Source: Cenarchaeum sp. (GTDB taxonomy: Archaea; Thermoproteota; Nitrososphaeria; Nitrososphaerales; Nitrosopumilaceae). From it: DNA of 64,000 nt. The DNA is taken from positions 640,001 through 704,000 of the forward strand of contig OY843768.1 of NCBI GenBank assembly GCA_963693095.2, in the 5' to 3' direction. Position 1 is the stretch's first letter; every line of letters starts with the position of its first letter. A program made the translations under genes and the position numbers. Under the pieces are notes generated by a model, which made no database searches, was not told the DNA's origin, and worked only from the letters and a program-made list of their open reading frames with translations. Positions 1,290-60,384 of the stretch are shown one piece after another.

Positions 1290-2549
1290 TTGTGCGCGTT
1301 GGCTGCACGCGGGTACAGGGTTCGCAACATTGGGCTCGCCCCGCGCGGGCGCCTCTCCTACGAGTGGGCGCGCGACCACATGGTCATACTCAACAACACC
1401 ATGGCGCGCCTGCGGCGCACAAGGCCACTGCGCGGCGTGACTGTGGGATTCTGCCTTCACATCACAAAGGAGACTGCGGTTCTCCTTCTTGCCGCCCGCG
1501 AGCTTGGCGCCACCGTTGCCGCATGCGCAGGCAACCCAATGTCCACGCAGGATGACATTGCGGCGTTCCTGGCCAAGAGCGGCATCCACATGTACGCGTG
1601 GACAAACCAGACGCAAAAAGAGTATGACTCGTGCATAGCGAGCGTGCTGTCGCACAAGCCGTCGATTCTCGTCGATGACGGGGCTGACATGAACGTCATG
1701 GCCCACTTTGATCGCCGCTTTGCGGACCTTGGAATACTTGGCGCCACCGAGGAGACAACTGCCGGAGTGTCGCGCATCCGCGCAGTTGAAAAGGCAGGCC
1801 GCCTGCGCTATCCGGTGATAATAGTGAATGATGCGCACACAAAGCACCTGTTTGACAACAGGCACGGAACTGGCCAGTCAACAGTGGACGCGCTCCTCCG
1901 GTCGGCCAACCTCCTTGTGGCATCAAAGCTAGTTGTCGTGGCCGGATATGGGTGGGTCGGCCGCGGCGTTGCGGCGCGCTGCCGCGGCCTGGGCGCGCGC
2001 GTCATTGTCACCGAGACGGATCCCGTAAGGGCACTCGAGGCCCACATGGACGGCTACGAGGTGACGAAAATGGCAGATGCAGCCCGCAGGGGCGAGATCT
2101 TTGTCACGTGCACCGGACAGACTGGAATCATAACAAAAAAGCACATGGTGACTATGCGCGACGGTGCCATTCTAGCAAACGTTGGCCACTTTGACGTCGA
2201 GATCGACACAAAGTTCCTCCTTCGCCCACAGCACAAGGTCAGGGAGGTCAGGCCAAGCCTTGACGAGTGCACGATAGGCGCCAAACGCCGCATCTACCTT
2301 GTGGGCAAGGGCCGCCTCGCAAACCTCGTTGCCGCCGAGGGCCATCCGCCTGAGGTCATGGCCCAGTCGTTCTCAAACCAGCTCCTCTCGATACTTCACA
2401 TACTCAAAAACCACGAGTCAATGGAGCGCACTCTCCACCGCGTTCCCGAGGAGATTGACGTCCAAGTCGCGCGCGACGCGCTCGCGGCAATGGGCGTAAA
2501 GATAGACAACCTGACGCGCGAGCAGTCAAATTACGCAAACTCGTGGTGA
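1290..2549 (+). CDS. ahcY: Adenosylhomocysteinase, copy 1
   Basis: CLHITKET, DDGAD, TEETTAG, TKHLFDNRHGTGQS, GYGWVGRG, NVGHFD, EGHP motifs. Confidence 0.96.
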   Translation: MCALAARGYRVRNIGLAPRGRLSYEWARDHMVILNNTMARLRRTRPLRGVTVGFCLHITKETAVLLLAARELGATVAACAGNPMSTQDDIAAFLAKSGIHMYAWTNQTQKEYDSCIASVLSHKPSILVDDGADMNVMAHFDRRFADLGILGATEETTAGVSRIRAVEKAGRLRYPVIIVNDAHTKHLFDNRHGTGQSTVDALLRSANLLVASKLVVVAGYGWVGRGVAARCRGLGARVIVTETDPVRALEAHMDGYEVTKMADAARRGEIFVTCTGQTGIITKKHMVTMRDGAILANVGHFDVEIDTKFLLRPQHKVREVRPSLDECTIGAKRRIYLVGKGRLANLVAAEGHPPEVMAQSFSNQLLSILHILKNHESMERTLHRVPEEIDVQVARDALAAMGVKIDNLTREQSNYANSW

Positions 2550-3826
2550 CCGTGGCGCGTGCGGCCGCCTCGCACATTCGCGACGCCCGCATGGGGAAGC
2601 GTGGACGGGTTTTGCACGAGTGGGCAGCATCACGGATGGGCGCGCTGCGCTGCACGTCAGGCTCGTTTGCGCGATCCATGCCGCTTGACGGCCTGACAGT
2701 CGCATTCTGCCTGCAGCTGACCGCCGAGACGTCGGTTCTCGTGCGCGAGGCGATGCGCCTGGGCGCACACGCCGTGGCGTGCGCGGGCAACCCGCACACC
2801 ACAGATGACGCAATTGCCGCACACCTTGTCTCAGAGGGCGCGACTGTCCATGCGTGGGCGGGCCAGAGCGCGCGTGAATTTCGCGCGTGCATTGCGCGCG
2901 CCATGGCCTCGTCTCCGGACATTGTCGTCGATGACGGTGGCGAGCTCTCCGCCCTTGCGCACATGCCGGGGCGCGCCCCGCCGAAAATTCTCGGCGGGAC
3001 AGAGGAGACGACAACAGGCGTGCGAAGGATGCGCGCACTCGCGCGCAAGCGCCGTCTCCATTACCCGATAATCGCAGTCAATGACTCTCGCACAAAGTCC
3101 ACGTTTGACAACGCACATGGCACAGGACAGTCAGCCGTTGATGCGCTCATGCGCTCATGCGGCCTCCTCTTTGCGCAAAAAACTATAGTCGTTGCCGGAT
3201 ATGGCCATGTTGGCCGCGGCGTTGCGGCGCGCTGTTCCGGACTGGGCGCGCGCGTCATTGTCACGGAGACTGACGCGCTTCGCGCCCTAGAGGCGCACCT
3301 TGATGGACACGAGGTCACAAGGATGGCCGACGCGGCGCGCAGGGGGGACATGTTTGTCACGTGCACAGGACAGCGTGGGGTCATCACAGCACGGCACGCC
3401 TCGCTCATGCGAGACGGCGCAGTCCTCGCAAACGTTGGGCACTTTGACGTGGAGATTGACGTCGCGGCACTGCGTGCTGCTGCGCTGCGAGCCAGGCGAC
3501 CTAGGCCAAACGTCGAGGAGCTCACCATGCGCAACGGACGCCGCATCAACATTGTGGCAGGCGGATATGTCGCAAACCTCGTTGCCGCCGAGGGCCACCC
3601 GCCTGAGATAATGGACATCTCCTTTGCAAACCAGCTCCGCTGCATCGTGCACCTTGCCCTGCACTCGGGCTCCATGGAGCCCGGCCTGCATGTAGTCCCT
3701 GTCGAGATTGACTCTCGCGTGGCCATGGACGCACTCGTTGCCGCAGGCGTGCGCATGGACACCCGTGCGCACGGCGGGGCTGAAGCTTTTAAGCGCACTA
3801 CGCGATGGGGAGACCATGGCAGATAG
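2543..3826 (+). CDS. ahcY: Adenosylhomocysteinase paralog, copy 2 (divergent)
   Basis: Same motif set as copy 1, but CLQLTAET replaces CLHITKET. Confidence 0.9.
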   Translation: MVTVARAAASHIRDARMGKRGRVLHEWAASRMGALRCTSGSFARSMPLDGLTVAFCLQLTAETSVLVREAMRLGAHAVACAGNPHTTDDAIAAHLVSEGATVHAWAGQSAREFRACIARAMASSPDIVVDDGGELSALAHMPGRAPPKILGGTEETTTGVRRMRALARKRRLHYPIIAVNDSRTKSTFDNAHGTGQSAVDALMRSCGLLFAQKTIVVAGYGHVGRGVAARCSGLGARVIVTETDALRALEAHLDGHEVTRMADAARRGDMFVTCTGQRGVITARHASLMRDGAVLANVGHFDVEIDVAALRAAALRARRPRPNVEELTMRNGRRINIVAGGYVANLVAAEGHPPEIMDISFANQLRCIVHLALHSGSMEPGLHVVPVEIDSRVAMDALVAAGVRMDTRAHGGAEAFKRTTRWGDHGR

Positions 3827-50698: not shown

Positions 50699-50806
50699 AT
50701 GAACGTGCGCTTTGCCATAGTCGCCGCCGTGCTCGGCACTGCGATCATGGCGGCATTTCTCATGGGCTCGCCGATGTTTGGCGGCTATGACATGGCGGCC
50801 CGCTAG
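50699..50806 (+). CDS. 35-aa single-TM protein (absent from ORF track)
   Basis: MNVRFAIVAAVLGTAIMAAFLMGSPMFGGYDMAAR; TTTTAA box about 28 bp upstream. Confidence 0.6.
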   Translation: MNVRFAIVAAVLGTAIMAAFLMGSPMFGGYDMAAR

Positions 50807-51939
50807 GAGACTCTCATCGCGTGGCATGCCCTGCGGACCTCGTCGAGGGCATCGCCGAGCTCGTCCGCATCAGGCCATGCCGTCACGGAGAGGCGGATTC
50901 TAGCCGAGCCTAGGGCAACGGTGGGATGGCGAACCGCGTGCGCAAAGATGCCGCGCTCATCAAGCCGTTCCCCGAGGCGAACCGCCTTGCGCTCATCGCC
51001 AACTATGATAGGCGCAATGTGCGTGCGTACGCCTTCCCTGCCGAGTCCCATCGAGTCAATGCACGAGTGCAGGAGGCGCGTGTTGCGCGCTAGCCTCTGG
51101 CGCCTTGCGGCCTTTGGCTCGGCGACCCTGGCACGGGCGTGCGCGATGACCTGCGGCGGGAGCGCTGATGTGTAGATAAGCGGCCTTGCGCGGTTTGCGC
51201 ACAGCTCCACCGTGCGAGGACCGGCAGCGACATATCCGCCAAGTGAGCCGATGGCCTTGCTGAGGCTGCCCGTGTGCACGTCGATGCGGCCCTGAACCCC
51301 TAGCATGCTTGCCGTCCCGCCACCGCGACTGCCCAGGACAAAGTCGCCATGCGCGTCATCTAGGACGCTTATTGCGCCGTGCTGTGCCGCAACTTTTGCA
51401 ATGCCCCGAATGTCAGCAACGTCGCCGTCCATGCTAAAGACGCCTTCAGTCACGATGATCCTTGCCCCTGCGGGCCGCCGAAGCTCCCTCTCCAGGGCGC
51501 CGACGTCATTGTGCGTATAGACTGCCGTGCGCGCACCGGAGAGCCTGCACGCGTCTATGACGCTTGCGTGGTTTAGCTCGTCAGAGACTACGACATCGCC
51601 CTTTTTTGCAAGCGCGCACACGGCGCCAATGTTGGCCATGTATCCTGTCGGAAAGACGAGCGAGGCGGCCTGCGAGCGGTGCGAGGCCAGCGACCTCTCC
51701 AGTGGCGCGTATCCGGCGGCGTTTCCGGAGAGGAGCCTTGATGAGGATGCGGCCTGCTCCCAGCGCGCCGCGCCGCCAGACGAGAGGCCCAGATAGTCAT
51801 TGGAGGAGAGGTTTAGGAGGCGCCTTTTGCCGATGAGCACGTGCGACCCGTCGGCCCTTGCCGTGCGAAGCCTGCGCAGCAGGCCCTGGGAGCGAATGCG
51901 GGACAGCTCGCCGGAGGCGAGGGACTCACTTGGCCTCAA
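50803..51939 (-). CDS. bioF: 8-amino-7-oxononanoate synthase
   Basis: SSNDYLGL, TGYMAN, SDELNHAS, EGVFSMDGD, DDAH, GSLSKA. Confidence 0.93.
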   Translation of the reverse strand: MRPSESLASGELSRIRSQGLLRRLRTARADGSHVLIGKRRLLNLSSNDYLGLSSGGAARWEQAASSSRLLSGNAAGYAPLERSLASHRSQAASLVFPTGYMANIGAVCALAKKGDVVVSDELNHASVIDACRLSGARTAVYTHNDVGALERELRRPAGARIIVTEGVFSMDGDVADIRGIAKVAAQHGAISVLDDAHGDFVLGSRGGGTASMLGVQGRIDVHTGSLSKAIGSLGGYVAAGPRTVELCANRARPLIYTSALPPQVIAHARARVAEPKAARRQRLARNTRLLHSCIDSMGLGREGVRTHIAPIIVGDERKAVRLGERLDERGIFAHAVRHPTVALGSARIRLSVTAWPDADELGDALDEVRRACHAMRVS

Positions 51940-52897
51940 GGCCGATGCGCCTGATCATCGCTGCGTCCTCCTCGGCACGCCGTCCGCCAGTGGTCAGGTA
52001 TCCGGCAGTTATTATCGCGTTGGCGCCCCCGCGCAATATGGACTCACCGGCGTCATCCAGCGCCTTTTCGCGTCCGCCTGAAACCCTCACTGTCGCGTGG
52101 GGGACGAGAAAGCGCATTAGCGCAAAGGTGCGCTCGGCCTCGCCGTCCGGAAGCGGCTCCTGGAGCTCAAGCGGGGTGCCGGGCATGGGCGTGAGGATGT
52201 TTATCGTGACCTCCTCGGGTGCCACTGATGCGATATCCAGGGCGAGCTCTAGCCTCTGGGCGCGCGTCTCGCCCATTCCTATTATCCCGCCCGTGCACAC
52301 GCCGAGGCCTGCCTCGCGCGCGACGTGCAGCGTGTCCATGCGGTCATCATACGTGTGCGTGGTGCATATCTCGGGAAACTTTGAGCGCGCCGTCTCGAGG
52401 TTGTGGTTGTACTTTGCGACGCCAAGTGACTTTAGGCGGCGTGCCCTGGCCGGAGTCAGGAACCCCAGGCTGCAGTCGACGTCGATTCCGACGGTTTGGT
52501 TGATCTCCTCGATGATCCTGCAGACGCGTTCAAAGTCACCAGGCGGCGGCTCGCGCCAGGCCGCAACAAGGCAGTACGATGACGCCCCGTCATCGCGTGC
52601 GCGACGCGCCTGTGCGACAATCTCCTCGCTAGGCGCCAGCGTGTGCGTGCCAATTCCCGTGTCGTACAATGCCGACTGGGCGCAGAACGTGCAGTCCTCC
52701 GAGCACGCGTTTTTCTTGATGTTGGCAAGCTCTTCGACCTCGACTTGGGGGCCGTGGAGTTCACGCGTTATCCGATCGGCCTCGCGCATGAGGCCTGCAA
52801 TGTCGCCATAGGCTGCCAGCATGCCCGCCTCGTCAGCCGTGATCGGATCGCCGCACACGACCCTGGTGGCCATCGCGCGCAGCCAGTTGCCGTCCAT
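51926..52897 (-). CDS. bioB: Biotin synthase (radical SAM)
   Basis: CSEDCTFCAQS, CSLG, YNHNLET, CTGGIIGMGE, SGGRE, YLTT. Confidence 0.96.
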   Translation of the reverse strand: MDGNWLRAMATRVVCGDPITADEAGMLAAYGDIAGLMREADRITRELHGPQVEVEELANIKKNACSEDCTFCAQSALYDTGIGTHTLAPSEEIVAQARRARDDGASSYCLVAAWREPPPGDFERVCRIIEEINQTVGIDVDCSLGFLTPARARRLKSLGVAKYNHNLETARSKFPEICTTHTYDDRMDTLHVAREAGLGVCTGGIIGMGETRAQRLELALDIASVAPEEVTINILTPMPGTPLELQEPLPDGEAERTFALMRFLVPHATVRVSGGREKALDDAGESILRGGANAIITAGYLTTGGRRAEEDAAMIRRIGLEAK

Positions 52898-53059
52898 CAC
52901 CGGCCACTCCACATGGCGCATTAATAAAACTGGCGAGGCGTGCTGCCGACATGGCGTTTGTGGACACCTTGGCAGCTTGCTGGCTGGGGACATGTTGGCA
53001 GCAGACGGGGTCACATTGTGCCTTCATGTGGCTCAACCGCACATGTTCTAGGGATGGTG

Positions 53060-53551
53060 TTATGTGAACGACAAAATGCCCGCATTCGGGAGTTCCATAA
53101 ACTTGACCACTGCCGTCATGGTCATTATGTAGCCGAACAGCAGCATTGATGTGATGATGAGGTTTTTGTTCTCCCGGTGTTTTTTCTTTAGCACTATGGT
53201 GTTGTGGCGTATTGCTCCTTTGTATGCTTGTTCGCGATAACTATGTACGTGATATTCCGCGTCTGATTTCATACTGCCAATATCATGAACCGTGAGATCT
53301 GCACCTCCGAGCTTTACAGGCTTGTCTGCTAGCATTTTTACGCCTATTCTCATTGGGTATGCAACAGCAAACGCCAATGCCAAAACAAAGATGTATGGGC
53401 TGCCTATGTTGTTAAACGCATAGGCAAACAGCATCACTGCCACAAACGAGAGGAATATTGACGCCTTTATGTCTAAATGCTGGCACAGAATTGCCAAAAG
53501 CACGTTGTGCTGTTGCATGATCGATATGCGGCCAATCCTGTCACTCGTCAT
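53060..53551 (-). CDS. Low-GC 3-TM membrane protein resembling Pycsar TM effectors (start 53551 or 53518)
   Basis: LDIKASIFL before TM1-TM2; NTIVLKKK before TM3. Confidence 0.65.
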   Translation of the reverse strand: MTSDRIGRISIMQQHNVLLAILCQHLDIKASIFLSFVAVMLFAYAFNNIGSPYIFVLALAFAVAYPMRIGVKMLADKPVKLGGADLTVHDIGSMKSDAEYHVHSYREQAYKGAIRHNTIVLKKKHRENKNLIITSMLLFGYIMTMTAVVKFMELPNAGILSFT

Positions 53552-53789
53552 CCTTGTCCACGTCCTTCTTATGGCAGTCGCACCCTTCAAACTTACACCG
53601 CTCGGGCTCAATATTGTCAAAGTCCACCCGGCCGCCAAACTCCATGACGCCATGAACTATGCCGACGCGGCCTCCGAGTATCCACTGGGTGTTCGCCTCC
53701 CTGTCCTCCCTGTTTATCCTGTCCGCCTCCTCTTCGGTCGGGCCTAGCAAGGCAATCTTCCTGAACAGGCGGTATAGCCGATCGCGCAT
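53541..53789 (-). CDS. 82-aa protein, copy A
   Basis: Paralog of 53907-54155; only synonymous differences in codons 1-50; TATA-like TTTTAATATATA upstream. Confidence 0.85.
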   Translation of the reverse strand: MRDRLYRLFRKIALLGPTEEEADRINREDREANTQWILGGRVGIVHGVMEFGGRVDFDNIEPERCKFEGCDCHKKDVDKDDE

Positions 53790-53906
53790 GGGGCAGGCCG
53801 GACGCGTCGCCCTATATATTAAAATCGTCGATATGGCGCACTTTTTGCGCATGGCGCAGCGTCACGCGCGCCGTGCTGCTGCATGACAGGCACGTGGCCA
53901 ATCCTG

Positions 53907-54155
53907 TCACTCGTCAACCTCTTTCACGTCCATTTTCCGGCAGCCGCACCCCTCAAAAGTACACACAAAGGGCTTCACCCTGCTAAAGTCCACCCGGTAG
54001 CCATACTCCATGACGCCATGAACTATACCGACGCGGCCTCCGAGTATCCACTGGGTGTTGGCCTCCCTGTCCTCCCTGTTTATCCTGTCCGCCTCCTCCT
54101 CGGTCGGGCCCAACAGGGCAATCTTCCTGAACAGGCGGTATAGCCGATCGCGCAT
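53907..54155 (-). CDS. 82-aa protein, copy B
   Basis: Paralog of copy A with the same length and shared CxFEGCxC motif. Confidence 0.85.
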   Translation of the reverse strand: MRDRLYRLFRKIALLGPTEEEADRINREDREANTQWILGGRVGIVHGVMEYGYRVDFSRVKPFVCTFEGCGCRKMDVKEVDE

Positions 54156-54203
54156 GGGGCAGGCCGGACGTGTTGCCCCATATATGCAAATCGCCGTTCT
54201 GAT

Positions 54204-55613
54204 CTATTTCTTGCGCACGGTGTGCCCTTGTGGGCGTCGGCGCGCGCCATGGTCCGGCGATGCCGAAGAGCCGGCCATCCTGCGTGCGGCGGCGACTATG
54301 GTCTCGGCGGCGGCCTCGCAGAGAGTGTCGAGCTGTGCGGCCGGCATTGCCAGTGGCGGGACGATCATGACAATGTTGCCAAGCGTGCGCAGGTATATGC
54401 CGCGCCTCCTTCCCTCCTCGTAGACGATGCGGTTTATCGAGCGGTTTGGCGTGGGCGCCCTTTTCGTGCGCTCGTCCCGGACCAGCTCGACTCCCATTAC
54501 CATGCCGCGATGCCTGACGTCACCGACCATTGGCAGCGTGGCCATCCTGTCGGCAAACGAGCCCAGTACGCGTGATGTCTTGCGTATGCGATCAAGCAGG
54601 CGGTGCCGCCTGTACAGGCGAATGTTTTCGAGCGCAACGGCGGCGGCAATGGGGTTTCCGGTGTACGTGTGGCCATGAAACAGGTGGCGTCCCTCGGCAT
54701 ACTCGCCGAGAAACGAGTCGTGGACCCTGCGTGTCGCAAGCGTTGCGCCAAGCGTCACATATCCGCCGGTGAGCATCTTGCCAAATGACACAATGTCAGG
54801 CCTAGAGCCCTGCGCGGTGTACTCGGCCATCGATCCAAGGCGGCCAAACCCCGTGGCAACCTCGTCGAGCACTAGGAGCGCGCCATGCCTGCGGCATGCC
54901 CTTGCGATCCCGCGCTGGTATCCGCGCGGGTATATGCGCACGCCTCCGGCCATCTGCGCGCCGCTCTCCATGACTAGCGCGGCGACATCCCCGCGCGCGA
55001 GCCGGCGCTCGGCGGCCTCGACGCACTGTGATGCGTCATCGTCCGGATCGCATGAGCGGTGGTACGCGTCAGGTGCCGCAACGCGCGAGACGCCAAAGAG
55101 GTGTCCCTTGAAGCGTGAAAAGAACTGTGCCGAGTACCCGATCGACATTGCGCCAAACGTGTCCCCGTGGTATCCGCCCTCGAGTGCCACGATCGCCGAC
55201 CTGGCGCGCTCGCCGGCGTTCTGCCAGTGCTGAAGGGCAATCTTTGTGGCGACCTCCATCGCCGTCGAGCCATTGTCCGAATAGAACACGTGGGACATTC
55301 CTGGCGCGATGCTGACAAGCTCCTCGGCGAGTCGTTCGGCCGGCCCGTGCGTCAGGTTGAAGAGCGGCGAGTGGGCAAGCGTGGCGGCCTGGCGCGACAT
55401 TGCGCGCACTAGCTCGCGGCGCGAGTGGCCCCACACATTGCACCACATTGACGCTACCCCGTCAAGCAGGCGCGTCCCGTCAGCGCAGACGAGGCTCATC
55501 CCGTCCCCGCGGACTATCTCATCAAAGGCGGCCCACTCGCGCATCTGCGTGTTTGGGTGCCACACGCGGCTGCGCGCCGCTCTTCCCTGGGCAGGCCTGC
55601 CGGTGTTCGCCAC
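54204..55613 (-). CDS. bioA: Adenosylmethionine--8-amino-7-oxononanoate transaminase
   Basis: VWHPNTQM, SMWCNVWGH, SDNGSTAMEVA, YHGDT, DEVATGFGR, GKMLTGG, HGHTYTGNP. Confidence 0.95.
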   Translation of the reverse strand: MANTGRPAQGRAARSRVWHPNTQMREWAAFDEIVRGDGMSLVCADGTRLLDGVASMWCNVWGHSRRELVRAMSRQAATLAHSPLFNLTHGPAERLAEELVSIAPGMSHVFYSDNGSTAMEVATKIALQHWQNAGERARSAIVALEGGYHGDTFGAMSIGYSAQFFSRFKGHLFGVSRVAAPDAYHRSCDPDDDASQCVEAAERRLARGDVAALVMESGAQMAGGVRIYPRGYQRGIARACRRHGALLVLDEVATGFGRLGSMAEYTAQGSRPDIVSFGKMLTGGYVTLGATLATRRVHDSFLGEYAEGRHLFHGHTYTGNPIAAAVALENIRLYRRHRLLDRIRKTSRVLGSFADRMATLPMVGDVRHRGMVMGVELVRDERTKRAPTPNRSINRIVYEEGRRRGIYLRTLGNIVMIVPPLAMPAAQLDTLCEAAAETIVAAARRMAGSSASPDHGARRRPQGHTVRKK

Positions 55614-55736
55614 GGCAGTGCGCGCCCGCACATAGGACGTATAAAGCAATGGTGAGCATGTGAATTTTCGGTGCACATTTGGTCAGCACTGTGCGCATTG
55701 CTACCTCTATATGGCGAGCGCGCCTGCGCTTCGGGC

Positions 55737-56306
55737 ATGCCGACCAGGACAGTCGATGGCGCCGTGCGCCCGAGGCGCGCATCCCCTGGGCAGGTTCACG
55801 CGGCATCGAGGGCGCGCCGGCAGCGCGGCTATAGCTGGGAGGGCACGATATCGCGCCGCTTTAATGCGCTAGAGGACTGGAGCGCATACCGCCTCGGCTC
55901 GCCTAGCACGTCGCTGCCTGACGTTCTGGCCCTAAACCCGTCTGAGAGCTCGGCATATATCATGGAGGCAAAGTCCGGCACGACCAACCGCCTGGTCGTG
56001 CCTGTCGACCAGGTCGAGCGCTGCGTCGATTGGGCACACGTTCTCGGACCATACCAGAAGCGGAGGGTGGTCCTGGCATTCAAGTTCCTCTCAAAGAAGC
56101 GCATTGCGCGCGGCGAGTACGGCGGAAGGGAGCTGCGCGAGTACTATAAGGAGTGGGATTCTGCTGCCAGGCCAGTCGAGTGCGTGTGCCATTATGACGG
56201 CTCGACGTACGGCCGCGATGGCGGCGTGCGCGTGGATCTTGACCTGCCTGACTGTGACGTGCCCATAGCGCGCAAGAGGCGCAGGCGTGCCCCACAAGGT
56301 ATTTAG
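55737..56306 (+). CDS. PD-(D/E)XK nuclease, Holliday junction resolvase (Hjc)-like
   Basis: RGYSWE, LPDVLA, IMEAKS, LAFKF. Confidence 0.8.
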   Translation: MPTRTVDGAVRPRRASPGQVHAASRARRQRGYSWEGTISRRFNALEDWSAYRLGSPSTSLPDVLALNPSESSAYIMEAKSGTTNRLVVPVDQVERCVDWAHVLGPYQKRRVVLAFKFLSKKRIARGEYGGRELREYYKEWDSAARPVECVCHYDGSTYGRDGGVRVDLDLPDCDVPIARKRRRRAPQGI

Positions 56307-58021: not shown

Positions 58022-59359
58022 ATGTCGCAAGGCGCACGGTTAAGGTGCATTGACGGCGCCTGTGCGCTCGAGTATCCGATCAACACAGTGGGCGTGAGCT
58101 GCGAGAACGGTCACCTCCTTGATGTCGTGTATGACAGCACGCCCCCAAAGTCCCTAAAGGAGTCGTTTCTGCACCGGCGCGATCATGGGGGGAGCATATT
58201 CAACGAGAGCGGCGTGTGGAGGTTTCGCGAGCTGATCAACTTTTGCCAGATAGACACCGAGGACGATGCGGCGTGCGCGCACGCGCTCGTCTCCCTTGAC
58301 GGGGCCGAGGGCAGGCAGTCGCGCCCGTACCGCATGTCCAGGGCAGCCGAGTTTGCGCGCATGGATTCTGAACGCCTACTCCTGCAGCCAGAGGGGTACA
58401 ACCCGAGCGGCTCATTCAAGGACAACGGCATGGCCACGGCCGTCACGCACGCAAGGATGGTCGGCGCATCAAAGATCGTCTGCGCGTCGACTGGAAACAC
58501 GTCTGCATCGGCAGGCATGTTTGCGGCCAATGAGGGGATGGAGTGTGACGTGTACATACCCCGCGGCAAGATCGCGCCGGGCAAGCTCGGGCAGGCATAC
58601 CAGTTTGGCGCGCAGATTGTTGAGGTCGACGGCAACTTTGATGATGCGCTGCGCGGCTCACTAGAGGCTGTGAGTGACGGCAGTGGATACACCGTAAACT
58701 CGATCAACCCGTTTCGCATAGAGGGCCAAAAGACAATACCGTACAGGGTACTTGAGCATCTGGGGTGGGAGGCACCCGACTGGATCGTCTATCCCGGAGG
58801 CGCACTTGGCAACACGTCAAGCTGCGGCAAGGCGCTCCATGAGCTTCGCTCGTGGGGATGGATAAAAAAGATGCCGCGAATTGCCGTGATCAACGCAGAG
58901 GGCGCTAGCACGCTGTCTGACATGTATAACGGGGCAAACGGCGAGGAGGAGCTACGATGGAACTCTGGCAGGCCAAACATGGGAATCATAGAGCGGCACT
59001 ATGCCGCACTCGACGCGTCCGGCAGTGTGCCGAAAACCCGCGCCACTGCAATACAGATAGGGCGTCCGGCAAACCTGCTAAAGGCCCTGAGGGCACTTGA
59101 GCTTAGCGACGGGCACGTCACCACGGTCAGCGACGCCGAGATGCTCGATGGCATGTCAGTAGTCGGCCTTAACGGGTTTGACTGTGAGATGGCATCTGGC
59201 GCGTCGATCGCCGGAATTCGCAAGCTTGTCAACGAGGGCATAATGCGCCGCGATGACACCGTCATAGGCATACTCACCGGAAGGCAAAAGGATCCAACCA
59301 TGCCAGTAGAGTACCACGCAGACCCCGCAAACCGGTTTGCGCGGCCACCGCGCGCATGA
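58022..59359 (+). CDS. thrC: Threonine synthase
   Basis: GVWRFREL, EGYNPSGSFKDNG, CASTGNTSAS, NSINPFRIEGQKT, ATAIQIG. Confidence 0.93.
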   Translation: MSQGARLRCIDGACALEYPINTVGVSCENGHLLDVVYDSTPPKSLKESFLHRRDHGGSIFNESGVWRFRELINFCQIDTEDDAACAHALVSLDGAEGRQSRPYRMSRAAEFARMDSERLLLQPEGYNPSGSFKDNGMATAVTHARMVGASKIVCASTGNTSASAGMFAANEGMECDVYIPRGKIAPGKLGQAYQFGAQIVEVDGNFDDALRGSLEAVSDGSGYTVNSINPFRIEGQKTIPYRVLEHLGWEAPDWIVYPGGALGNTSSCGKALHELRSWGWIKKMPRIAVINAEGASTLSDMYNGANGEEELRWNSGRPNMGIIERHYAALDASGSVPKTRATAIQIGRPANLLKALRALELSDGHVTTVSDAEMLDGMSVVGLNGFDCEMASGASIAGIRKLVNEGIMRRDDTVIGILTGRQKDPTMPVEYHADPANRFARPPRA

Positions 59360-59415
59360 TGCCGCAGACGGGCCGCTCGCCAACGCTAAATAGCGGCAAT
59401 ATGCGCAAATCTCGC

Positions 59416-60384
59416 ATGGCCAAGCCCACCGTAGTCGAGCTCTTTGCCGGCGCAGGCGGCATGGCCCTGGGCCTCCACAGGGCCGGCTTTGAGACCGTCT
59501 CGCTAGTCGAGAACGACAAGGACTGCGTGGCGACGCTAAGGATGAACCGCCCACGCTGGAACGTCATCGGAGACGACATTGCAGATGTGAAGTTTAGGGG
59601 GGTGCGCGCTGACGTCGTGACAGGCGGGTTTCCGTGCCAGCCGTTCAGCCATGCGGGAAACAAGCTCGGGTTTGGGGACGTTCGCGGGACGCTGTTCTAC
59701 GAGTTTGCCAGGGCAGTAAAGCAGATCAGGCCGCGCGCATTTCTTGCCGAGAACGTCGAGGCGATCACGCGCAATGACGGCGGCAGGACGCTTGAGACCA
59801 TACTGCGCATCCTAGACTCCCTCGGGTATGACGTCAGGTACCAGACGCTCAACGCGCTGGACTATCGCGTGCCGCAAAAGCGCAAGAGGGTCATATTTGT
59901 CGGCGTGCGGCGCGGGATGGCCTTTGAGTTCCCGCGTCCGCATGGCGGGGTAATCACGCTTCGCGAGGCGCTTCGCAAAACCCCGCGATCGGCGGGAACG
60001 ACCTACTCGGAGAGGCGCAAAAAGATACTCGACAGGGTTCCGCCCGGCGGCTCATGGGTTAACCTGCCCAAAAGGCTCCAAAGGGTGTACCTTGGCAAGA
60101 GCATAAACTCCGAGGGCGGAAAGCGCGGGATGGCCAGGCGCCTGTCCTGGGACGAGCCGTGCCTGACACTCACGTGCTCGCCGTGCCAAAAGATGACGGA
60201 CAGGATTCATCCTGATGAGACGCGCCCGTTCACCATCAGGGAGTATGCGCGCATCCAGACATTTCCGGACACATGGAAGTTTGAGGGCAGCGTGTCATCA
60301 CAGTACCGGCAGATAGGCAACGCGGTTCCGGTAAAGCTCGCCGTTGCGCTTGGCCGCTCCATGCGCAAGGCACTTGAGCTGTAG
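59416..60384 (+). CDS. C5-cytosine DNA methyltransferase (M.Eco47II/M.Sau96I-like, probably GGNCC)
   Basis: ELFAGAGG, GGFPCQPFS, ENV, PQKRKR, GGKRGMARRLSWDEP, QIGNAV. Confidence 0.93.
   Translation: MAKPTVVELFAGAGGMALGLHRAGFETVSLVENDKDCVATLRMNRPRWNVIGDDIADVKFRGVRADVVTGGFPCQPFSHAGNKLGFGDVRGTLFYEFARAVKQIRPRAFLAENVEAITRNDGGRTLETILRILDSLGYDVRYQTLNALDYRVPQKRKRVIFVGVRRGMAFEFPRPHGGVITLREALRKTPRSAGTTYSERRKKILDRVPPGGSWVNLPKRLQRVYLGKSINSEGGKRGMARRLSWDEPCLTLTCSPCQKMTDRIHPDETRPFTIREYARIQTFPDTWKFEGSVSSQYRQIGNAVPVKLAVALGRSMRKALEL

Follow-up and report, generated by a model that had tools for sequence, protein, structure and literature searches.

Small membrane effectors of the PycTM/two-transmembrane (2TM) type permeabilise the membrane and kill or arrest infected cells. 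[quoted passage not shown] Here we describe a cassette in the biotin gene cluster of a Cenarchaeum sp. (contig OY843768.1, positions 640,001 to 704,000 of the forward strand; this whole stretch of 64,000 nucleotides is referred to as the window), in which a gene encoding a 152-aa membrane protein is preceded by two tandem genes encoding 82-aa proteins. A remote kinship of the membrane protein to PycTM/2TM effectors is likely but unproven. The tandem small genes look like duplicated partners of the membrane protein gene and not like precursors of peptide antibiotics, and judged by sequence comparison the small protein may well serve as cytoplasmic inhibitor, gate, sensor or regulator in a selfish or defensive cassette whose effector would permeabilise the membrane, although we put this forward tentatively. 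The genome that contains the window is designated G000 (2.0 Mb, 99.55% complete), G001 to G004 belong to the same genus, and G005, G007, and G016 belong to other genera. The cassette comprises the following features, given in the direction of transcription with their positions in the window.

54178..54190, minus strand: TATA-like box of copy A, TTTGCATATATGG, whose end lies 23 nt upstream of the ATG (read from the sequence)

53907..54155, minus strand: small gene copy A, proximal to bioA, 82 aa, stop included in the coordinates (from the list of open reading frames, ORFs)

53873..53884, minus strand: remnant of the first four codons of the membrane gene, ATGCAGCAGCAC (12 nt), situated downstream of copy A and left by the duplication (from a four-way DNA alignment)

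53812..53824, minus strand: TATA-like box of copy B, TTTTAATATATAG, whose end lies 23 nt upstream of the ATG; also conserved in G004

53541..53789, minus strand: small gene copy B, directly upstream of the membrane gene, 82 aa, stop included in the coordinates (from the ORF list)

53060..53518, minus strand: partner gene encoding a 152-aa, PycTM/2TM-effector-like membrane protein with three long helices, starting 22 nt after the stop of copy B (from the ORF list)

A small-family gene is located directly upstream of, and co-oriented with, the membrane gene in all seven bio- or thi-type loci with readable upstream DNA, namely the bio locus and a second cassette (L013) of G000, the bio locus and a further cassette (L021) of G004, and three contigs of G002. 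The second G000 cassette adjoins thiD and a transposase-like ORF, and the L021 cassette is situated between thiC and thiD. The contexts were taken from four genomes of the genus and the database records named below. The seven pairs occur in at least five different neighbourhoods, and the two genes are separated by 22 nt or overlap. Small and membrane genes co-occur in four of the five genomes of the genus, and the fifth has neither. In case of G001, the membrane gene is cut by the contig end. Altogether, 33 database homologs of the membrane protein were found. A distant membrane paralog (27% identity to P0035) lies elsewhere in G000 (L015, G000:C1:125476-128871, positions 1453-1917, minus strand); it matches the PADLOC 2TM effector model with E 0.0018 and adjoins genes that, from a reading of their translations, are folP-like and MptE-like.

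The small gene belongs to a duplicated unit which the initial annotation had reported as a tandem 366-bp repeat between bioA and bioB, each copy with a TATA-like region of its own. Both statements hold: 366 bp separate the starts of the two ORFs, Pfam identifies bioA and bioB on the flanks, and both boxes end at the same distance from the ATG. What had been overlooked is the membrane gene, into whose first 12 nt the duplicated unit extends. The two 381-nt units align without gaps at a mean column identity of 90%. The start of copy B was set at MRDRLY, because the longer reading of 103 aa crosses the TATA-like box. Considering general archaeal promoter geometry, the position of the boxes suggests leaderless transcripts of copies A and B. 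The two-copy arrangement itself is also seen in contigs from public sequencing runs, which may include the source sample of the window; one contig spans 53776-54057 with one other letter and joins the 3' part of copy A to the promoter of copy B. The locus is present in contigs of six public runs from three studies, none of the runs listed for it being an RNA run, and no Rfam family came close to its gathering score within 52800-54500. The ortholog of copy B in G004 is 83% identical.

AlphaFold2 predicts helices at residues 2-34, 41-64, and 88-145 of the membrane protein (mean predicted local distance difference test score, pLDDT, 62.4). According to the positive-inside rule, a basic stretch lies on the cytoplasmic side of the membrane. 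The basic KKKHRENKN before helix 3 thus puts the N-terminal helix and the loop of residues 65-118 in the cytoplasm, where, if this predicted topology is right, they are reachable by a soluble partner. When the membrane and the small protein were modelled as a complex, the score was 0.00, which is no evidence for or against binding.

The likeness to described effectors derives from several profile and neighbourhood comparisons. The PADLOC PycTM model PDLC02364 matches 18 of 29 members of the membrane family (best E 1.5e-4) and PDLC02365 matches 7 of 29. These matches are colinear, with N-terminal parts aligned to profile positions ~19-55 and C-terminal parts to 118-151, and one of them, in which residues 24-149 of P0011 align to positions 21-152 of 160 (E 2.9e-4), extends over the full length. 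In the language-model search Atlas, the nearest entries (0.93 and 0.92) are bacterial clusters of ~150-aa proteins, of whose members 13% and 11%, respectively, carry PF18967 (PycTM), and a precomputed PF18967 match exists for 2 of the 33 homologs. A bona fide PycTM encoded in a relative of the same family (L055) has 165 aa and shares size class and helix order with the membrane protein.

Copies A and B encode a constant part followed by a variable one, a build that proved real. Within codons 1-50, 6 nucleotide differences are spread over 5 codons, and none of them alters the protein (synonymous differences, Sd=6; non-synonymous differences, Nd=0). Codons 51-82 contain 27 nucleotide differences with 15 amino-acid-changing and 2 synonymous-only codons, so that a recount reproduced the figures given before. 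All 15 amino-acid differences fall at residues 51-80 (hypergeometric P=5.7e-8 for chance placement), and synonymous and non-synonymous counts differ between the two parts of the gene (Fisher p=1.9e-4). A single gene-conversion tract, named in the initial annotation as an alternative cause of the N-terminal identity, does not account for it: the number of synonymous substitutions per site (dS) is alike along the gene, 0.197 in the N-terminal part vs 0.241 in the tail, and the identity is thus due to purifying selection and not to a younger conversion tract. Codons 1-50 are under purifying selection, and both ORFs are real coding genes.

The conserved core of the small family comprises ~55 residues, predicted as a helix, a GP turn, a second helix, and a short hairpin ending in FGxR, after which the tail varies freely. 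In the AlphaFold2 model (pLDDT 58.5), helices occupy residues 2-14 and 19-32 and the hairpin residues 34-45, and the tail is unmodelled. As noted before, ILGG is situated at residues 37-40, and RVDF, P, and CxFEGCxC are retained in both copies. The 28-residue tail with three Cys (C-x4-C-x-C) occurs in 6 of 17 aligned members, all of them from the bio locus of G000 or G004 or from near-identical strains. The tails of the other 11 members comprise 3 to 61 residues; in seven of these the length is 3-17 residues, and four of these seven are ten-residue, acid-rich tails such as the D-rich end of the bioB-adjacent copy of G002. In G001, the core is fused to a run of GLDGETGA repeats which reaches the contig end (L050, G001:C104, positions 1519-1839, plus strand), and this gene is consequently cut at its 3' end. 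The C-x3-G-C-x-C skeleton is constrained, because it is retained even in the far-diverged upstream copy of G004, and the three-Cys tail is a possible small metal-binding knuckle.

The small family is unannotated. There is no Pfam match, the sole NCBIfam match is meaningless (E 0.19), PADLOC does not match the 8 members examined or 3 further ones, a sequence search of the PDB gave nothing meaningful (best E 0.86), Atlas gave no usable match, and Foldseek vs the PDB gave nothing at E<=0.001 for the model. A known housekeeping family, with which a match had earlier been considered, was thus found neither in Pfam nor in NCBIfam. Likewise, tblastn of the small and the membrane protein vs 50,697 phage records yielded no match, and a literature search without supplements found no paper describing the family.

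Further copies in the genome, for which the initial annotation had proposed to search, were not retrieved with a single protein as query, but a divergent third member is encoded at the thi locus of G000 (L013). The single-protein search of G000 returned copies A and B plus one weak match at G000:C1:1846793, which lies in a tetratricopeptide repeat-like gene and was discarded as chance. A word-indexed search of 5.8 billion proteins identified four small-family proteins, and an exhaustive hidden Markov model (HMM) search of 1.84 billion cluster representatives identified 13 at E<=1e-3, of which the weakest is a 622-aa repeat protein and unlikely kin. Among 61 related genomes, credible matches were restricted to the same genus (G004 and G002 besides G000); a family profile applied to four genomes of the genus gave four matches in G004, three in G002, one in G001, and none in G003. 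The same loci were found in records titled 'MAG: Cenarchaeum sp.' and 'MAG: Thaumarchaeota archaeon S13', and two scans of metagenome contigs gave no confirmed loci. S13 and Cenarchaeum are referred to as specialised sponge symbionts in PMC7848895.

The small gene alone was duplicated in tandem repeatedly, at the bio locus, at the thi locus of G004, and in the two-core proteins P0038 and P0040, which may be fused ORF calls in GC-rich DNA. In case of the bio locus, the flanks of copy A, including the 12-nt remnant of the membrane gene, match those of the G004 upstream copy in the four-way alignment. The same remnant is situated downstream of the upstream copy in G004, i.e., the duplication junction is common to both genomes, and therefore the duplication is older than the split of the G000 and G004 species. 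By its coding sequence, copy A is close to copy B and the downstream copy of G004 (dS 0.17-0.24), the distance to the upstream copy of G004 being much larger (dS 0.6 to saturation). The simplest account of this mosaic would be that in the G000 line the whole coding region of copy A was converted by the downstream type. The upstream small gene exists in two allelic forms which are strongly diverged, share the same intergenic flank (window 53761-53909) and are found together in contigs from three studies (runs X1, X5, and X6). In these three runs, a contig that matches the intergenic region continues at 53909 into a tail of the G004 upstream type.

The diversifying module inferred in the initial annotation was not borne out, since the ratio of non-synonymous to synonymous substitutions per site (dN/dS) of 1.58 in the tail is indistinguishable from neutrality (86% non-synonymous vs 81% expected, p=0.40), and the thi locus of G004 has a tandem pair with the opposite pattern, a differing core (Sd 8.5, Nd 14.5) and an identical tail. 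The conserved-core/variable-tail pattern is not general across tandem pairs. It is quite possible that the uneven divergence has no adaptive meaning, in that a disordered tail under low constraint drifts neutrally and gene conversion shuffles the copies. This estimate concerns the divergence of the tail and is separate from the question of function. The share of non-synonymous changes just given is in line with neutral drift, and so are the pLDDT of the tail (<50), the unrelated tail sequences across the family, including the GLDGETGA repeat, and the composition of copy A from flanks of the G004 upstream copy and a downstream-type coding sequence, which points to whole-gene conversion. Drift alone fits less well with the fact that even the upstream copy of G004 (dS >=0.6) retains the Gly and all three Cys of C-x3-G-C-x-C. 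Furthermore, when the tail changes are polarised on the G004 downstream copy, 12.2 non-synonymous and 1.8 synonymous changes fall on the branch of copy A (branch B: 7.5 and 1.5, respectively), those of copy A being clustered in 25 codons, and several of its tail codons need two or three nucleotide changes each.

At the bio locus the cassette is flanked by the following genes.

54204..55676, minus strand: bioA-type aminotransferase, upstream flank (Aminotran_3, E 4.6e-82), start codon not settled

51926..53014, minus strand: bioB (biotin synthase), downstream flank (Pfam Radical_SAM and BATS)

50803..51939, minus strand: bioF-type 8-amino-7-oxononanoate synthase (Aminotran_1_2), syntenic with bioB in relatives

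Because bioA, bioB, and bioF are contiguous in all three genomes of other genera that were examined (G005, G007, and G016), the ~1.2-kb cassette is regarded as an insertion between bioA and bioB. The sites of the cassette differ between genomes and include bioA/bioB, thiC/thiD, a gene that reads like deoxyhypusine synthase in translation, and a cyclase gene (G001). The membrane family occurs in 4 of 401 sampled genomes of the taxonomic family, G000 included, and all four belong to one genus. Between G000 and G004, the cassette evolves faster than its flanks: dN and dS are 0.014 and 0.039 for bioB, 0.024 and 0.105 for bioA, and 0.089 and 0.149 for the membrane gene, and dN of small copy B is 0.07-0.13. 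Judged by these sequence comparisons, the cassette is a lineage-restricted mobile insertion with no evident role in the synthesis of biotin.

Directly upstream of the second G000 cassette, at the position where G004 has thiC, a 399-aa transposase-like ORF is located (L013, G000:C1:1072574-1076065, positions 2226-3425, minus strand), which may mark a rearrangement of the thi cluster. The neighbours of the cassette in the window are the bio genes, Hjc, DsbD_TM, a thioredoxin-like protein, a PALP enzyme, and a DNA methylase. Of these, the Hjc-like resolvase (55671-56306, plus strand) has a long N-terminal extension, and the methylase (59356-60384, plus strand) is a C-5 cytosine DNA methylase (E 8.6e-79).

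Cyclases of the PycC type were found at other places. No PycC cyclase is encoded beside the membrane gene at the G000 bio locus, and the only PF00211 match over the cut-off in this genome is at G000:C1:720666-721451, outside the window (L034/L036). It represents a 262-aa class III cyclase which matches PADLOC PycC (E 2.1e-33) better than Pfam Guanylate_cyc (E 7.4e-16). Such a stand-alone PycC-like cyclase with no adjacent effector is distributed across the family (35 of 36 genomes). Among G000 and its relatives in the genus, only G001 has a membrane-family gene beside this core cyclase (L038, G001:C45, positions 1345-3014); the two genes are convergent with a 50-aa Cys/His-rich ORF in between, and the membrane-family gene is cut by the contig end. 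As a single case, this adjacency could be chance. Directly downstream of the cyclase, two genomes share a conserved, unannotated ORF of 50-54 aa with the motif CxxC...H..H..C (L034, positions 2073-2237, minus strand; L038, positions 2259-2411, minus strand), which looks like a zinc ribbon by its motif. A canonical Pycsar operon is present in another member of the family (L055, G185:C1:891956-895240, positions 626-1848), where a PycC gene (242 aa) overlaps the PycTM gene (165 aa); this is the only PF18967 match over the cut-off among 401 sampled genomes of the phylum. The possibility that the small gene is the leftover C-terminus of a cyclase was rejected (hhalign probability 0.1-0.15%).

Considering pairing, patchy range, and repeated duplication together, the small protein may act on the membrane protein as follows. 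It would bind the cytoplasmic parts, i.e., the helix at the N-terminus and the basic stretch that precedes helix 3, and in the bound state would hold the membrane protein inactive or gate it in an antitoxin- or sensor-like manner. Extra tandem copies would raise or diversify the supply of the safe component; that only the small gene was amplified agrees with a component whose excess does no harm. The toxin/immunity or sensor system that the initial annotation had proposed from the constant-plus-variable build agrees with the newly found partner gene, toxicity and neutralisation being predictions.

Several observations weigh against this assignment. PF18967 at its curated cut-off matches 0 of 29 members of the membrane family (1 of 29 at E=3.7), and a PF18967 search of the genome does not match the locus. 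With hhalign, the family profile vs one bona fide PycTM gave a probability of 0.3% with only the N-terminal HN..D.K motif aligned. Neither a solved relative (sequence search of the PDB) nor a fold match (Foldseek vs the PDB, E<=0.001) was found for the membrane protein, and both AlphaFold2 models are of low confidence (see the pLDDT values above). The distant third membrane paralog of G000 (L015) has no small partner. Furthermore, all three G000 membrane paralogs adjoin cofactor genes (bio, thiD, folP), which is unexpected for a purely selfish cassette.

It is tempting to extend the proposed effector-partner role to a new archaeal system of abortive infection or addiction, in which a PycTM-type pore would be gated by tandem-amplified small proteins, the tails (three-Cys knuckle, acidic runs, Gly-rich repeats) would serve as specificity sensors for viral or host factors, a PycC-like cyclase would perhaps participate in trans, and the landings in vitamin operons would tie the system to host-relevant metabolism. 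We consider this elaborate version clearly unlikely.

Instead of a toxin-like effector with its controller, the two genes might encode a non-lethal signalling or regulatory pair, consisting of a membrane sensor or anchor and a small cytoplasmic adaptor similar to anti-sigma or adaptor proteins, with no toxin-like activity. Strict pairing and co-orientation are expected here as well, the homology to effectors is weak, and the modelled two-helix core of the small protein could be a module for protein or DNA interaction. Such a pair is nevertheless unlikely, given that the positions are not conserved between close relatives and the patchy occurrence in one genus is typical of selfish or defence cassettes, that PADLOC and Atlas both point to PycTM/2TM effectors, and that no DNA-binding family matched the small protein.

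A cofactor-linked function, i.e., export or sensing of biotin- or thiamine-related compounds with the Cys tail as a metal or Fe-S accessory near BioB, would explain why the membrane paralogs of G000 adjoin bioA/bioB, thiD, and folP together with an MptE-like gene (reading of translations), why the thi copy of G004 lies between thiC and thiD, and why the three-Cys tail is confined to bio-locus copies of G000, G004, and close strains. We regard it as improbable, since two of the three G002 cassettes are located away from cofactor genes, the G001 copy is situated beside a cyclase, the bioB-adjacent copy of G002 lacks any Cys, three other genera run bioA-bioB-bioF without the cassette, 397 of the 401 sampled family genomes lack it, and no transporter family matched the membrane protein.

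Finally, a precursor of a ribosomally synthesised and post-translationally modified peptide (RiPP) or bacteriocin, which would consist of a conserved leader with a double-glycine cleavage site and a variable, Cys-containing core peptide destined for modification and export, as the conserved N-terminus, the variable Cys-containing C-terminus and ILGG had suggested, is hardly credible and was rejected, because the GG is internal to a core whose conservation runs to residue 54, the 11 members lacking the Cys tail include seven whose 3-17 residues after the core leave no core peptide, the constant neighbour is a small membrane protein and neither an enzyme nor an ABC exporter, no candidate modifying enzyme is found among the unrelated neighbours in the window (as already stated in the initial annotation), and the 99.55%-complete genome contains no match to Peptidase_C39 (PF03412) at E<=1 (the control was positive in 7 of 14 known genomes) and none to YcaO (PF02624), LanC-like (PF05147), or SPASM (PF13186). 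In annotation, copies A and B should therefore not be labelled RiPP precursors.

If the small protein does control the membrane protein, an unannotated small-protein family would join the known controllers of membrane-disrupting effectors, the membrane protein would represent an archaeal Pycsar-like effector uncoupled from its cyclase, and the locus would illustrate in nature how the partner of an effector is shaped by tandem duplication, gene conversion, and tail turnover. A mobile cassette moreover splits essential vitamin operons in an uncultured animal (sponge) symbiont. If the link to cofactors were true, the cassette would be a so far unknown accessory of vitamin supply in sponge symbioses.

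Compared to described systems, the outward likeness to double-glycine RiPP or bacteriocin precursors consists of the conserved N-terminal part, the variable Cys-containing C-terminal part and the GG, whereas the internal position of the GG, the homologs that mostly lack a core peptide and the lack of processing and modifying enzymes in G000 set the small proteins apart. Type II-like toxin-antitoxin systems share with the cassette two short, co-oriented genes which are close or overlapping with the small soluble one first, a small protein with a disordered, fast-evolving part, and a patchy distribution with varying positions and several copies per genome; in contrast, the putative toxin is here an integral membrane protein, and the small protein matches no antitoxin family. 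Effectors of the 2TM type in cyclic-oligonucleotide-based antiphage signalling systems (CBASS) are similar in that L015 and one family member match the PADLOC 'Effector 2TM' model (E 0.0018) and that the bona fide PycTM of L055 matches the same 2TM models, but no CD-NTase or other signal-making enzyme is situated beside the cassette and its matches are far below family level.

Pycsar shares a membrane protein of ~150-165 aa whose N-terminal helix contains an HN..D.K[AS] motif, the order in which two hydrophobic helices are followed by a loop and then by a third hydrophobic helix, an effector gene directly after the partner gene, near or overlapping, and weak colinear matches of the membrane family to the PADLOC PycTM models. 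Differences are that the upstream partner in the cassette is a protein of 64-82 aa unlike a cyclase (hhalign, see above), that the only class III cyclase of G000 is encoded 27 kb away and is a core gene, and that the membrane family remains below the PF18967 cut-off. The cassette thus falls outside Pycsar as that system is defined, and is best classed as a membrane-effector module whose small partner is unusual.

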